The notes under the pieces were generated by a model. It worked only from the letters and a program-made list of their open reading frames with translations. It ran no database searches and was not told where the DNA came from. Below, one piece after another: positions 8,675-26,590 of a stretch of DNA of 39,898 nt. Every line of letters begins with the position of its first letter. Within the stretch, counting starts at the first letter, position 1. Origin of the DNA: a virus (Duplodnaviria; Heunggongvirae; Uroviricota; Caudoviricetes); IMG/VR virus record IMGVR_UViG_2698536471_000018, positions 1-39,898 of that record; one strand, 5' to 3'. A program made the translations under genes and the position numbers.

Positions 8675-8743
8675 CGTCAAAAATCATCGCCCAGCCACTT
8701 TTTTACACGGGAAAGATCCGATGATTTTCGGCGCATCCATGAC

Positions 8744-9220
8744 TTAATAACCTTGAGATTTAGCAACGCGAATACCGGCCGCCATCCCATTGAAATCCCA
8801 TGCGTTTTTATGGGCAATAGGATTACGTGTGTTGAAGGCATAGCGCTGGCCCATTTTCCATGCTGTATCGCTAACAGACTTATCTTGAGAGAGGTTTACC
8901 CACTCCTTTATGCCTTTGTAAACATAGGACTTACAATCATCCGTAGTTCCTTTCCGATTGGTGTAGGCATCCAGATCTTCGCATTCTTGAAAGGAGTTGC
9001 TGACTATATCCGCGAAATCATCAATGGTCATGGCGAATCTGCGACCATTCATAGCGAAAAAAGGAGTAGCAGAGGCGTAATGTTGCCACTGCGTAAACTT
9101 TTGCTGATCCATTAAATCAACAGCCATTTTTTCATACTTCCCAGGAGCGGCTAATCCCGACATCGGAACAAGTAAACTTATTGCAATAAAAATGGCTTTC
9201 TTATTCAATCTTATCCCCAC
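8744..9220 (-). CDS. Moron: secreted/periplasmic protein of unknown function (signal peptide, two Cys)
   Basis: Likely GTG (9220) or TTG (9208) start giving N-terminus (M)NKKAIFIAISLLVPMSGLAAP = signal peptide; SD-like AAGGAG/GGGGA upstream. Confidence 0.55.
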   Translation of the reverse strand: MGIRLNKKAIFIAISLLVPMSGLAAPGKYEKMAVDLMDQQKFTQWQHYASATPFFAMNGRRFAMTIDDFADIVSNSFQECEDLDAYTNRKGTTDDCKSYVYKGIKEWVNLSQDKSVSDTAWKMGQRYAFNTRNPIAHKNAWDFNGMAAGIRVAKSQGY

Positions 9221-10275
9221 CGATTCATTGCTCCTTGACTTTGAAGATCCGCCGCGCCACGCGCTTCGCACATCATATCCATGTACCACGCCTGGCCCCT
9301 TGTATCGCCAGTGTACATAATCCCGCGCACAATATAAACGCCATCCGTTGCGATGCTGGCAGGTTGTGCTGTGGTGCCGCTTAGCGTGATATTTCCGTCC
9401 GTGTTCTGGTCGGTGATCTGCCCACCAGCCATCGCAATATCGTTGTTCGACAACGCGGTGCGATATACGGAAGCCTGATCCAGTTGAATGAGCCCATTAA
9501 CCCGGATGTTCGGATTAATAAGCGCGCGGACGTTTACGCCGTTGCCGATAGTCTGCTGCGGCATGCTGATAAGCCCGGTGTCGCTGTTGAGCACAATCGC
9601 TTCATGAACATATTCGTTATTCGCCACCATCTGGCGTTGACCGTCCACGAATTGCCATGTTGCGCCACATTGCCCGGCTACGTTATCCATAAGATGCCGC
9701 GTCATGCCAAAGAGCACCCGCCCCCGGGGGAATACAGTAGCAGGCATTTCAGGCGTCAGGCCTTCGGTCGCGCCTTTGGCTTCGAAGTCTTTCATCAGCG
9801 CACGGTTCACATCAGCGACCGTGTAACCGGCAGCCAGCGTCTGTGAGGTTATACTGGTGGCAAATGCCAGATCCGTATCTGCTGCCTGAATCAGGACATA
9901 GGAATCAATAGGGCTGTCTTTTCCTGTGACCGAGTAGCGAATTTCTCCGCTGAAAATCAGCCCGTAGTTGCGGCCATCACTCTGGCCCACATCTGCCGCG
10001 TCGACTTCGCGCACGGTCCCGACGTCGCTTGCCGCCACCTCCGGCGCGATACCGTCGTAACCGGCAATCAGCCGCACTTTCGAAAATTCCTTCCCGGTGA
10101 TTCGGTTCACAGTATCTGCCGAGAGGTTATAAATTTTGATAGTCCCTACCCGGGACGCGCTGCTGATGTTGAACCAGTCGATCGTAAAGGTGACTTTGAA
10201 ATCACTTAGCTCAATTCCCTGACCGTTCCCGTCCACAAGCTGCAGCTCGAAATGTCTCATCCAGTTCTGTGACAT
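9211..10275 (-). CDS. Baseplate hub protein (Mu gp44 / P-like)
   Basis: 354-aa protein at head of baseplate operon; size and context. Confidence 0.6.
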   Translation of the reverse strand: MSQNWMRHFELQLVDGNGQGIELSDFKVTFTIDWFNISSASRVGTIKIYNLSADTVNRITGKEFSKVRLIAGYDGIAPEVAASDVGTVREVDAADVGQSDGRNYGLIFSGEIRYSVTGKDSPIDSYVLIQAADTDLAFATSITSQTLAAGYTVADVNRALMKDFEAKGATEGLTPEMPATVFPRGRVLFGMTRHLMDNVAGQCGATWQFVDGQRQMVANNEYVHEAIVLNSDTGLISMPQQTIGNGVNVRALINPNIRVNGLIQLDQASVYRTALSNNDIAMAGGQITDQNTDGNITLSGTTAQPASIATDGVYIVRGIMYTGDTRGQAWYMDMMCEARGAADLQSQGAMNRWG

Positions 10276-10580: not shown

Positions 10581-11167
10581 TAGCCGCCTCCCAGTAATGA
10601 CGCCACGTTACCAGTGATGCTTTTCAGCAGTGAAGTATCTGGAGGCTTTGTGGTTTTGTTGCCGCTGTTCTGTACCGCCGACGTGCTGGCCCCTTCCTTC
10701 ATGTTGGTTTTATCCGCGACGGTAATCTGCTGTGTCCGGGAGATAAGGACCTCCCTCAGGGTGAGGACGGCGGACAGGACGTTTTCGGTTGTCTTGTCCG
10801 TCGTCACTTCCAGCGCCCGGATCAACATGTTGCTGTACAGTCGTTTACCGGTTACCACATCGAAGGGGATACGGCTTTCCTGCAGATCCAGTAGCTCCTG
10901 ATACGTCTGCTGAGGACTCAGGCCGAGCAGGCTGGTAGCCGTCAGATTACTGGCAAAATCCAGCAATGCGCCGCCACCGGCGAAACCAACCTCCATCACC
11001 ACTTCTGACGGTTTTTTATAGGCATGATCAGCGACAGCGGCCCCGACCTCTACCGGATGCTCTGTTATTTCAAGCATATCTGTATGCTTCTCTGAAATAA
11101 CAACACTGGGAACAATCATTCCTATTTTTCTGCTCTGCTGATGAAAAAGTGTAGAGAGAATATCCAC
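10580..11167 (-). CDS. Tail protein (downstream of tape measure)
   Basis: 195-aa ORF with overlapping start/stop in tail operon. Confidence 0.45.
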   Translation of the reverse strand: MDILSTLFHQQSRKIGMIVPSVVISEKHTDMLEITEHPVEVGAAVADHAYKKPSEVVMEVGFAGGGALLDFASNLTATSLLGLSPQQTYQELLDLQESRIPFDVVTGKRLYSNMLIRALEVTTDKTTENVLSAVLTLREVLISRTQQITVADKTNMKEGASTSAVQNSGNKTTKPPDTSLLKSITGNVASLLGGG

Positions 11168-13155
11168 TAACCCACCCTCACCTGATTACTTCGCATGACC
11201 TGAGCATTTGCAGACTGTTGCCGACGTGCAACCTCATTACCGACAGCGTGCGGATCTCCGCCACCGTAAATGTGGTAAGTATTTTGCTGGTTAACCTCTG
11301 TCATTTTGCCACTAATTCCCGCCACGGCAGCCTTATTAATCAGCTCTCGAGAATAGATATTTCTTCCATTCTCATGCTGGATAATGCTGCTCATCAATGC
11401 TGACATGGTTTGCGGATCGCTCATATTCAGGGCAGCCCGGGGATCCACTCCCAGTCGTTGCGATACAGCCCTGATATACGCAGTTGTGTTGTTATTATCA
11501 GACGCAGGTGCCCAAGTAGAGATAATTTTCTCCACACTGTTTATTCCCCGTCCGGCGTACAGCATTAACTGACGAGCAAGAGCCCGTAATCCATCAAAAG
11601 CAGTTTCAAATCTGGCAAATCGCCCGCCCGGGCGTTCAAGAGAAGCCCCTGCCTGACCAGCAAAATTAAGGTTTCCCGGATTGTTATTCCGTTCTCCTCG
11701 TTTCGTAGCCTGTGCATATTGTTCCGGCTCATCATCACCAAACCAGCCGCGTACCGTCCGGCCCACACTGCGGGGATCGAATCCCCAGTGCTCTTTAATC
11801 CAGTCGGCAGTACTGTTAGCGCTGTCTGTAACCATCGGCATCGCTGACGGATTTTCGCTGCCCTGATTAAGTATCTGTTTGCCGATGATGACGGCATCAG
11901 CCCAGCGGCCATCTTTGATAGCGTTGAGCAGGTCGGCGATCATGTTCAGCATTTTGCTGAATTCGCCCATCTGGTCGATGAAGTTGCTGAAATCCCACTT
12001 CAGGGACCATGATTTTGGGTCAATATTGAGCAGTTTCGCCAGCGCTTTCGCCAGTTCATTAACAGACCCTTTCAGGTCACGAACCATCTTCAGCGCGGCA
12101 TCGACCTCCGGCTTCCACTTGCCCCAGTCAATCAGGCTGTCGCCGCCTTCCTTCCAGGTCTGATAGTCCTCCCACAGAAGGGCAATCCCCGCCGCCAGCG
12201 CGGTAATGAGACCAATCGGCGACATCCAGAACGTACTGTTCAGAATGCGCAGCGCAATCGTCAGCGCGCCAAACAGCGAGATGAGCTCCCGCGTTTGCTT
12301 ATCCAGCGATTGCCACCAGGTGATAAGGCTGGATGTTCCCTCAATTAGCCTGAAGAACAGCCGCCCGATGATGTCTCCGATCGCCAGAATGCCTTTTATG
12401 GCTTTCGTCAGGGTCTGCTCGATACGAGGGAAGTTGTCCAGGATATGGCGGCGCAGGGTGTCCAGCGAACCCGCAAGCCCACCCGCAAGATTAGAGCCGA
12501 TTTTGTCACGGGCCATGCCTGCCATCGCGCCGAACTCGCGCAGGGAGGTCATGAATTTGTTGGAGCTTCTGGCCGCCTCGTCAGCATTGAAGCCGATAGC
12601 TTTCGCCATTGCGCTGTACTGCCCGGAGAACCCCCCCACACCCCGGCGCATCGCCATAAGGGTATTTTCGTCAATGCCCAGCATCTGCGCATACTGGTTA
12701 GCCCGGTAATACGGCATGCTGCTGAGCTTCTGGCCGACGCCCGTAAAGATAGCGGCCATGTCGCGCATGTTACCGCTGGCGTCACGGGTCTGTACCCCCA
12801 GACGATTCAGAAATCCCTCCGCCCCGGGATTATTACGAATAAACCGGGAGAGGTTTTCCAGAGAAGATCGCGCAGCGTCCACGCTGCCGCCAACCTGCGA
12901 AACCGCATAGCCAATAGACTGAATTCCCTGGACTGTCGCGCCGGTGCGCTGTGACGCCCAGTAAAGATTATCCAGACCGGAGGCGATCTTAGCCGTGAAG
13001 GCCACCACGGACAGCGCGGCTCCTTCAACGGCCAGCCCCATTTTGATGACATTTGCAGTTGTACCGGCGAGGACAGAACCGAACTTTTTCGCTCCTGCAT
13101 CATCCACACTGAAGCCAAGCGAGACGAGGAAATCTTTAATAGTTTCAGCGTTCAT
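11167..13155 (-). CDS. Tail tape measure protein
   Basis: Long Ala/Gly-rich helical protein with internal hydrophobic segment; start taken at second ATG (MNAETIKDF) after GGAGAGAGG; ORF-track ATG is 13176. Confidence 0.8.
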   Translation of the reverse strand: MNAETIKDFLVSLGFSVDDAGAKKFGSVLAGTTANVIKMGLAVEGAALSVVAFTAKIASGLDNLYWASQRTGATVQGIQSIGYAVSQVGGSVDAARSSLENLSRFIRNNPGAEGFLNRLGVQTRDASGNMRDMAAIFTGVGQKLSSMPYYRANQYAQMLGIDENTLMAMRRGVGGFSGQYSAMAKAIGFNADEAARSSNKFMTSLREFGAMAGMARDKIGSNLAGGLAGSLDTLRRHILDNFPRIEQTLTKAIKGILAIGDIIGRLFFRLIEGTSSLITWWQSLDKQTRELISLFGALTIALRILNSTFWMSPIGLITALAAGIALLWEDYQTWKEGGDSLIDWGKWKPEVDAALKMVRDLKGSVNELAKALAKLLNIDPKSWSLKWDFSNFIDQMGEFSKMLNMIADLLNAIKDGRWADAVIIGKQILNQGSENPSAMPMVTDSANSTADWIKEHWGFDPRSVGRTVRGWFGDDEPEQYAQATKRGERNNNPGNLNFAGQAGASLERPGGRFARFETAFDGLRALARQLMLYAGRGINSVEKIISTWAPASDNNNTTAYIRAVSQRLGVDPRAALNMSDPQTMSALMSSIIQHENGRNIYSRELINKAAVAGISGKMTEVNQQNTYHIYGGGDPHAVGNEVARRQQSANAQVMRSNQVRVG

Positions 13156-13785
13156 TATCCTCTCTCCATTTCTCAATGCGCCGCTGGTTATCCGCTTTTA
13201 CCGCCAGATGGTCATTCAAGAGAGCAATGTCGTACAAATCGACAGAGCCATCTTTCAGTGCTGTATAAGGAATTAACCCGGCGTCAACCGGATTGAGAAG
13301 GTAGGACAGCCCGTCCGGCAGGCTGTTAAACGTCAGCCCTGTTGCAGGCTCTGTGTCGTGCTGGTAAGGGGTGTAGGCAAAAAATTTCCCAGTGAATCGG
13401 CGACCACCCGCGCCACCAGCTGCAGCATGGTTAGCAGGTCGATATCATCGAACATCAGCTGACCGCTGTTGAATACCGGCGTCCATCCGTCCATGTGCTT
13501 ACGTGATACTACGGCCAGGCAAGGATGAATAATCGCGTTGGTATCTTCTTCAGTCAGGGAAGACAGTTCCTCAGCGATACGCGGGAGCATGGTTTCAAAC
13601 ACCGGTTTTAACTGCTCGAATTTCACGGTGTCGATTTTGCCATCAGCAGGCAAACGGGAGCGAATGCTCCCGAAATCTGACATCATTCCTGCCAGCACCG
13701 GCAGAAGTTTGCGGGTCACTTTCAGCTGGTCAAAAACGCTGAGTTTTGCCACGCGATATTTCACGCCTTTGATTTCGAATTCCAT
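13145..13785 (-). CDS. Tail assembly chaperone with probable -1 programmed frameshift extension (G/GT-like)
   Basis: Zero-frame product 150 aa (13333-13785). Slippery run GGGAAATTTTTTG near 13369-13380 on coding strand; the -1 frame stays open for about 70 more codons to a stop at 13145-13147 overlapping the tape-measure start. Confidence 0.55.
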
Positions 13786-25536: not shown

Positions 25537-25998
25537 CTAATTTGAACACTGCTCTTTGATGTAGTCCTGCAAGTAGCCGACCTGCTTCGTCACTGTGACG
25601 ATTCGCTCTCTGAGGGTGAAATAATCCCGTTCAGCGGAGTCAGTAAGTCCGGGGCTGGAAGCATCGCCCAAGCTGCCGGTGCCGGTCTTTCCGCTCGCTG
25701 GACATCGGGCATTGAAGTGCAGCCCACACTTGCCAGTGCGAACACAACGCTGCAGATCATCAAGCTGCTTTTTCGCATCAGCTAGTTCTCCGGTGTATTT
25801 AGCATCGAGTGCATCAGCATCACGCTGGCGCTGCTGCATGTCAGTAATGGTGGCGTTCGCCTTCTCCAGTTCACTGGCCTTGTTATCGCGCTGCTCTTTG
25901 TAGGCGATTGCGTTATCACGGTAATGATTAACAGCCCATGACAGGCAGACGATGATGCAGATAACCAGAGCGGAGATAATCGCGGTTAACCGACTCAT
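25537..25998 (-). CDS. Rz: i-spanin Rz
   Basis: From [30 protein letters not shown]... near-identical to lambda Rz N-terminus; ORF-track start is an upstream artefact. Confidence 0.9.
25590..25778 (-). CDS. Rz1: o-spanin Rz1 (embedded in Rz, +1 frame)
   Basis: Lipoprotein signal with lipobox SVGC followed by Pro-rich region and [10 protein letters not shown], as in lambda Rz1. Confidence 0.85.
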
Positions 25999-26086
25999 GA
26001 CATCAACACTCCAACGGCCAGAAACCACGGCCACGCATCGTTGCCATTGAATGCGAGCAACGCTGCCATGAAAAAGCAAATCATGC

Positions 26087-26590
26087 TCATTGTTGCCCCC
26101 ACAAACAGACTTCACGCTCAATCTCACGACGAGTCATCAGACCTTTCCATTGCTTACCGCCAGCGTATGTCCAGCGACGTAGCTGATCACATGCGCCTTT
26201 GATATCGCCCTGGTTGATTTTGCGCAGAAGCGTCGATGTTCTGAAATTGCCAGCACCCACGTTGTAAACGAATGAGTAAAGAGCGCCGCGCGTTGTTTCC
26301 GGTATATCGACTTTGATGTACGGGTTAATTTGTCTGGCTACCGTGGCAAGGTCTTTATTCAGGAGGGCTTTGCATTCTGCTTCGGTATACGTTTTACCGG
26401 GAATGATGTCTTTTCCTGTATGCCCGTGACATACAGTCCATACGCCAACGATATCTTTGTATGGTATGTAGCTGACACCTTCCAGACCATCGTTACCACC
26501 TGGACCAGTGATTAACACTGATGCTATAGCAATAGCCCCGCCACTTATCGCCGCTATTACGCTATTTCGTAGTGCCGGTGACATTGCCAT
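26087..26590 (-). CDS. R: SAR endolysin (phage 21 R-type lysozyme)
   Basis: N-terminal Gly/Ala-rich signal-anchor-release helix ([26 protein letters not shown]) then lysozyme domain. Confidence 0.9.

Follow-up and report, generated by a model that had tools for sequence, protein, structure and literature searches.

An exported protein family encoded directly after the baseplate hub gene of SEN34/E217-like temperate myoviruses, with a tentative role in blocking phage entry

Why a temperate phage should carry a gene for an exported protein between two of its tail genes is the question raised by the locus described here. The window (the whole stretch of DNA that was analysed, 39,898 nt) is a prophage with an integrase gene at 1-1158, a DnaB gene, a CI-like S24 repressor gene, tail fibre, baseplate and sheath genes, and an Rz-like spanin gene at 25537-26127. 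Its tail module is of the E217/Pam3 type, with Dit_like, plug, hub, Gp138_N spike, sheath initiator and Baseplate_J genes. The gene under study (the target gene) directly follows the baseplate hub gene (9211..10275, minus strand, 354 aa), which matched phrog_196 at E 5e-88 and, weakly, Pfam E217_GP41. The membrane-puncturing spike gene (6973..7728, minus strand), with a Gp138_N-type N-domain and an Apex motif, forms the downstream border of the cargo island in which the target gene lies. An 82% identical orthologue is present in the isolated relative Hafnia phage yong1, and SEN34 and Klebsiella phage Mulock are further phage relatives; the regulatory region of SEN34, a temperate myovirus, is lambda-like (PMC5261728). 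A second IMG/VR record, IMGVR_UViG_2700989544_000001 (L009/L052), showed 99-100% protein identity to the window across the tape measure, Dit, plug, hub, target, DUF2335, spike and baseplate genes and is probably the same prophage. An Acyl_transf_3 acyltransferase gene adjoins the integrase gene (1863-2879, plus strand) and resembles the O-antigen-modifying lysogenic-conversion genes found at that position in other temperate phages.

The coding sequence was placed at 8744..9208 on the minus strand, giving 154 aa from a TTG start, with the stop codon at 8744-8746. A non-ATG start just after the upstream stop codon had been proposed in the original prediction, and the TTG (9208-9206) lies 2 nt (GA) past the hub stop codon TAA (9213-9211). 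A Shine-Dalgarno-like GGGGA (9214..9218, minus strand) is found 5 nt upstream of the TTG; it is made by the last codons of the hub gene, which suggests that translation of the target gene is coupled to that of the hub gene. An alternative in-frame GTG at 9220-9218, where the original prediction had set the end of the ORF, would give a protein of 158 aa beginning MGIRLNKK..., and the same signal peptide is obtained from both the TTG and the GTG. The TTG-equivalent start is the one annotated in RefSeq for the 98% identical orthologue of E. coli KSC64 (WP_140394813.1, 465 nt). The equivalent start position is TTG, GTG or ATG in the 17 related loci compared, and a purine-rich motif (GGGGA, GGGGG, GGAGC or AGGAA) precedes the start in all 17. 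An internal Met start, which the original prediction had named as evidence against secretion, was checked in the same loci: the Met15 of the window is missing in 7 of the 17 (L013, L014, L017, L018, L020, L026 and L027). Because the start codon and the Shine-Dalgarno motif are kept and Met15 is not, the start that includes the signal peptide is taken to be the conserved one, and the secreted reading stands.

The mature part of the protein is under strong purifying selection, with pN of 0.05-0.30 against a saturated pS of 0.68-1.0 and dN/dS of 0.12-0.20 where this was computable. For the signal-peptide part, pN was mostly 0.2-0.68 and about equal to pS. A constrained mature part together with a relaxed signal part is the pattern expected of a selected exported protein, and these substitution patterns indicate that the target is a real, selected gene and not a chance ORF. 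An intact copy is still carried by the decayed prophage of KSC64 (L001). The tape measure, tube, sheath and capsid genes of that prophage are deleted, and its plug gene is followed directly (at 5579-6465) by a truncated head-morphogenesis pseudogene and then by the portal and TerL genes.

Translation from the TTG gives a protein that starts with MNKKAIFIAISLLVPMSGLA followed by APGK. Residues 1-20 (9149..9208, minus strand) have the n/h/c anatomy of a signal peptide, laid out as MNKK, AIFIAISLLVPM and SGLA, with the cut between SGLA and APGK; the Kyte-Doolittle mean over 10 residues is 3.09. The basic n-region, the hydrophobic h-region and the small residues at -3/-1 are those of a Sec signal peptide processed by signal peptidase I; the call is a heuristic one, based on this anatomy and on its conservation among homologues. 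Although the N-termini of the homologues are unrelated in sequence, all full-length members keep the basic n-region, a hydrophobic core (10-residue Kyte-Doolittle mean of 2.1-3.5) and the small residue at -1. Conservation of Ala20 is at least 90% among the homologues, and an AXA-type c-region is conserved in the alignment. Signal peptidase I would cleave between Ala20 and Ala21, leaving a mature protein of about 134 aa with a computed mass of 15.4 kDa and pI of about 8. The signal peptide of the window protein contains no Cys, and hence no lipobox, and the protein is predicted to be soluble in the periplasm. The central claim of the original prediction, a Sec-exported protein encoded within the tail module, was borne out by this comparison of signal peptide and locus among homologues.

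Two cysteines had also been pointed out in a short acidic segment. They are Cys76 (codon 8983-8981) and Cys92 (codon 8935-8933), within FQECEDLDAYTNRKGTTDDCK, and the acidic segment that holds them, ECEDLDAYTNRKGTTDDC, is encoded at 8933..8983 on the minus strand. The pair is invariant in alignments A1, A2 and A3, even in members that are only 18-30% identical, and would form a disulfide in the periplasm. Apart from these two residues, only Trp117 is invariant across the family; Asn54, Tyr82, Trp103, Asp109, Phe139 and Arg147 are nearly so, as is a Trp that replaces Met142 in most members. This conservation looks like that of a disulfide-stabilised binding scaffold and not that of an enzyme. 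The AF2 model, made with a 15-sequence alignment (pLDDT 84.5, pTM 0.76), places in order the signal helix, a further helix, a three-stranded sheet and five helices, the signal region being modelled as a helix at residues 3-16 with low pLDDT. No match to the model was found in the PDB using Foldseek, and the BFVD structure search gave one match, to an unnamed 324-aa viral protein at E 1.1e-3. The small helical secreted or immunity proteins LPG2271 (5l1a), TsiV3 (4nsr) and DUF1311 (3gi7) were considered and rejected, with low scores typical of unrelated helical bundles; unlike these proteins, the target has an N-terminal three-stranded sheet as well in the AF2 model. The Pfam model for LprI/DUF1311 (PF07007) matches no member of the family.

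Close homologues were obtained from a search of 5.8 billion proteins as 15 clusters at 53-97% identity, all from Enterobacterales (E. coli, Klebsiella, Raoultella, Yersinia, Citrobacter and Prodigiosinella) and all annotated as hypothetical. The family is small: an exhaustive profile search of 1.84 billion representatives returned only 25 proteins at E <= 0.001, a broader profile in a second, word-indexed search added members from Acinetobacter and Pantoea, and a scan of species-representative genomes found one locus only, in Trabulsiella. The domain occurs by itself (145-183 aa), followed by a coiled-coil tail (about 190-224 aa), or at the C-terminus of proteins of 290-375 aa, most of which have canonical lipoboxes; ISGC, LTAC, IVAC and TAGC were seen in the longer members. 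Members that seemed to have no signal peptide were truncated gene calls. The target matched nothing in Pfam, NCBIfam or PADLOC and had one non-significant match only in PHROGs, and the distant relatives had no significant match in Pfam, NCBIfam, PHROGs or PADLOC; the defence models of PADLOC-DB 2.0 gave no significant match to either. No Pfam family was common to the 27 members of the family-wide alignment at E up to 10, and profile searches of all PDB chain sequences with alignments A1 and A3 found no relative. Literature searches on lpg2271, Hafnia phage yong1, SEN34 and exported proteins encoded close to baseplate hubs turned up nothing on the target gene. The protein family is undescribed, whereas exported prophage accessories in tail modules are a known kind of element.

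Among loci with a close homologue, all 26 have the target gene 2-30 nt beyond the end of the hub gene, and in three of these (L017, L022 and L023) it is the sole gene between hub and spike. To count what fills this slot, 80 IMG/VR loci were taken in which the hub shares at least 96% identity with that of the window. In 80 of the 80, the gene that comes first after the hub codes for an exported protein; these loci are close relatives, so that the count is a property of the lineage and not 80 independent events. The slot is filled by a second family (family B) in 67 of the 80, by the target family in 7 and by a 241-aa lipoprotein in 6. Family B (phrog_3443, 111-117 aa; e.g., L002 at 2485-2820 on the minus strand, and L042-L047) is present in phages SEN34, Mulock and GZ7 and in most E. 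coli prophages of the window type, and its N-terminal half is variable while its C-terminal half is conserved. Like the target family, it occupies the identical slot abutting the hub stop codon and combines a Sec signal peptide with a pair of conserved cysteines; unlike the target family, it is apparently beta-rich and far commoner, and the two are unrelated in sequence (hhalign probability 0.2%). The 241-aa lipoprotein (lipobox LTSC; plus strand, 3948-4673 in L057 and 4568-5293 in L064 and L101) is a very divergent relative of the target family, with an hhalign probability of 93.5% and E 2e-7, and does not have the conserved tryptophans of that family. Among 5426 complete E. coli genomes, the hub-spike region was found in 353 (~6%) and the target gene in only 12.

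The strictly conserved position beside the hub gene, the translational coupling and the association with E217-like tail modules over deep divergence could all be read as signs of a virion or ejected tail-tip protein, in which the hydrophobic N-terminus would stay uncleaved and serve as a membrane anchor during genome delivery. A structural baseplate protein should, however, keep a fixed position in all related modules and diverge together with its neighbours, and this was not the pattern observed. E. coli PI24 has a tape measure, hub and spike 97-100% identical to those of the window, yet carries the unrelated family B in the slot. At L021, the tape measure and hub are 98% and 97% identical to those of the window and the target only 64%, and at L033 the hub and spike genes are directly adjacent, with no family member at their junction. 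The target allele varied independently of the alleles of tape measure, hub and spike, and it did not follow the tail-fibre allele either, as the window's fibre allele was found in only one of nine E. coli carriers and in 11 further genomes that were all non-carriers. This uncoupling from the alleles of the tail proteins identifies the target as accessory and not structural, and with no co-variation with tape measure, hub, spike or fibre there is nothing pointing to a partner. The conserved AXA-type c-region, the canonical lipoboxes of distant relatives, the different slots used among phages and the presence of the family in islands without tail genes speak against the virion reading as well. 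The original prediction had named a virion component as an outcome that would contradict it; checked here by comparison, such a role is considered highly improbable.

The distant relatives (18-39% identity) were located on their contigs. P0019 and P0025 are in the hub-to-spike slot; P0021, P0022 and P0036 are found in E217-like modules with the tape measure on one side and the Dit-like gene on the other; and the lipoproteins P0020, P0028 and P0035 adjoin the primase gene of integrase-AlpA-primase islands. Residence in another slot of the tail module or in tail-less satellite-like islands is a further reason to regard a virion role as unlikely. The pri-adjacent region of PICIs has been described as an anti-phage accessory region or hot spot (He et al. 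2024, PMC11364771). The contig of P0020 (L036/L037) is an integrase-AlpA-DUF927 primase island with a 331-aa lipoprotein relative, and downstream of it are tail-fibre (Collar) and tail-fibre-chaperone genes, together with an RNase-toxin/CdiI-like pair. Because fibre and chaperone genes lie on a primase island, L036/L037 is read as a satellite-like element with its own fibre genes.

The interval between hub and spike is low in GC, at 40-46% over 7750-9200, whereas the hub and spike genes have 53-58%. The original prediction had applied the label of moron, and the deviant base composition agrees with it. A promoter and a terminator of its own do not appear to belong to the target gene: in a consensus-based scan, no promoter-like site was found on the minus strand at 9209-9400 (~190 nt upstream), and no terminator was found past the target gene until 7770-7751, beyond the next cargo unit. 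With a gap of 2 nt between the genes and no promoter-like site in the 190 nt before it, the target gene would be co-expressed with the hub gene. The AT-rich spacer that follows (8582..8743, minus strand) has a promoter-like site at 8651..8624 with 9 of 12 matches and opens a separate downstream cargo unit. This second, variable slot (7786..8581, minus strand) holds a small ORF (8279-8581, minus strand, phrog_26284), which is absent from the RefSeq annotation, and a gene for a DUF2335 membrane protein (7786-8358, minus strand; phrog_3996, 'moron'). A strong terminator-like hairpin with an 8 bp stem, 5 GC pairs and a T-rich tail (7751..7770, minus strand) stands just before the spike gene; since it lies midway through the tail operon, it would have to be passed by read-through or antitermination for the baseplate genes downstream to be transcribed. 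Judged by its promoter-like site (8651-8624) and terminator (7770-7751), the true moron-like unit is the downstream DUF2335 unit, and the label holds for the target gene in base composition and not in transcription. The second slot swaps unrelated cargo among L004, L005 and L042-L047; cargo seen elsewhere includes a YafO toxin with its partner, DUF4282, a pair of 243-aa and 142-aa proteins with a weak HEPN_IX match, and a 184-aa membrane protein with a weak PycTM match. The slot has the look of a small hot spot for defence genes or cargo within the tail operon.

Apparent co-expression with late tail genes would suit a periplasmic factor acting late, in lysis or egress, such as an RI-like antiholin, a regulator of lysis timing or a protein that masks receptors on debris and so spares the progeny. 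That the protein is periplasmic, small and helical, and that some exported protein fills the slot in every member of the lineage, are compatible with such a factor. The lysis cassette, however, is 16 kb distant (Rz-like gene at 25537-26127), the family is also found in satellite-like islands, and the PDB sequence search showed no similarity to known lysis regulators, which together make this a very unlikely explanation.

A protein that serves the lysogen against a target other than phages was weighed as a further explanation. It would be a lysogenic-conversion or fitness factor comparable to lambda Bor or Lom, altering the envelope, stress tolerance or host interaction of the lysogen. Its export, the deviant GC, the location in a cargo island and the occurrence in clinical Klebsiella, E. 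coli and Yersinia are consistent with this, as is one relative that is fused to Sel1/TPR repeats in a context that does not look like phage. The family is nevertheless bound to a single type of tail module and to satellites across deep divergence, and its carriers include environmental genera (Hafnia, Trabulsiella, Pantoea, Prodigiosinella and Acinetobacter) as well as pathogens. The gene shows no independent promoter-like site, and the constant occupation of the slot in this lineage suggests that the phage itself profits. The context points to a role directed at phages, and a fitness factor of this kind is regarded as unlikely, if less so than a factor of lysis or egress.

Among phage-directed roles, inhibition of a tail enzyme can be set against the properties of the tape measure (11167..13176, minus strand). 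[quoted passage not shown] A protein similar in action to Spackle or TsiV3 would inhibit the hydrolase of an incoming tail tip, here the endolysin-like domain, and stop the tail at the cell wall. The small, largely helical, periplasmic target with its Cys pair would be of a suitable kind, and SLT or Peptidase_M23 tape measures are present in related phages. The family accompanies three different hydrolase domains of the tape measure (endolysin-like, SLT and M23), however, and the tape measures of L033, L048 and L051 have no recognised hydrolase domain; those beside P0021, P0022 and P0036 have Peptidase_M23 or no recognised hydrolase. Domains that vary or are missing argue against an inhibitor of a specific enzyme, as does the uncoupling of the target allele from that of the tape measure, and such an inhibitor is judged improbable, somewhat less so than a lysis factor.

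The most likely function, put forward tentatively from genomic context and analogy, is that of a periplasmic protein of the superinfection-exclusion type that blocks entry. On this view the target is delivered to the periplasm by Sec as a small soluble protein, with cleavage probable after Ala20 and a disulfide between Cys76 and Cys92 probably lending it stability; it is a non-structural accessory of a SEN34/E217-like temperate myovirus, encoded in a dedicated slot after the hub. It would act in the cell envelope and block the entry of incoming phages, either by binding a tail-tip or tape-measure component after puncture of the outer membrane or by binding a host envelope factor needed for DNA entry. 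Entry blocking is favoured because exported accessory genes beside tail genes are a known signature (Llp, Cor, gp15 and Ltp), because in satellites the domain is found in an accessory region for which immune genes have been reported, and because slot replacement and diversification are typical of genes in conflict. The defence-flavoured cargo of the neighbouring slot (the YafO toxin pair and the weak HEPN and PycTM matches) was counted in its favour, as was the spread of carriers over environmental genera in addition to pathogens. The position of the gene speaks to its function indirectly. No homology of the family to any known exclusion protein was found in family libraries or PDB sequences. 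The simplest reading of the expression signals is late expression with the tail genes and not the expression in the lysogen that classical exclusion needs, and this apparent late expression is the main weakness of the entry-blocking reading.

A broader proposal can be made, with more doubt than is attached to entry blocking as such. SEN34/E217-like temperate myoviruses may have an obligatory exported-protein slot after the hub, in which two or more unrelated families, periplasmic or lipoprotein, can stand in for one another. The target would represent an undescribed disulfide-bonded domain that is also the C-terminal module of primase-side lipoproteins of satellites, and these proteins might be gatekeepers of a new class, periplasmic and linked to the tail module, by which the tail tip or tape measure of a related phage is halted once past the outer membrane and short of the inner one. 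To our knowledge, few periplasmic anti-phage mechanisms are understood, most known defence being cytoplasmic. The family is small and strongly conserved, is tied to one tail architecture and to satellites, and competes with the unrelated family B for a slot that is always occupied; the always-occupied slot and the link to satellites are the new parts. If entry is blocked, the family would provide a new exclusion domain and a handle on the task of the E217-type tail tip in the periplasm. If it is not, the always-filled slot would still point to an unrecognised periplasmic step in the prophage life cycle.

The known systems that come closest differ from the target family in sequence and resemble it in setting. 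T4 Spackle (Sp) is a periplasmic inhibitor of the gp5 tail lysozyme. Like the target, it is a small periplasmic protein with a signal peptide, and it acts on the incoming tail tip; as in the T4 case, the window phage has a muralytic domain at its tail tip. No sequence or fold similarity to the target was detectable for Spackle or for solved periplasmic exclusion proteins. Llp of T5 and Cor of phi80 and N15 are exported lipoproteins encoded beside tail or receptor-binding genes, and they block FhuA, the receptor of the phage itself. They share with the target a small size, export, a location within the tail region, a fixed position in a phage group and an accessory nature; the target differs in having no sequence or family match to them (PHROG, Pfam), no lipobox and no co-variation with the tail fibre, and its longer lipoprotein relatives are also unrelated to Llp or Cor. 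HK97 gp15, TP-J34 Ltp and P1 Sim are prophage exclusion proteins that block DNA entry, gp15 being a moron inside the tail module and Ltp being reported to target the tape measure. No homology of gp15, Ltp or Sim to the target was found; gp15 resides in the inner membrane and is transcribed as a unit of its own, whereas no separate promoter-like site was found for the target gene, and Ltp is a lipoprotein from a Gram-positive system. With these three, the target has in common that it is encoded in a tail module, located in the envelope and accessory to the phage that carries it.
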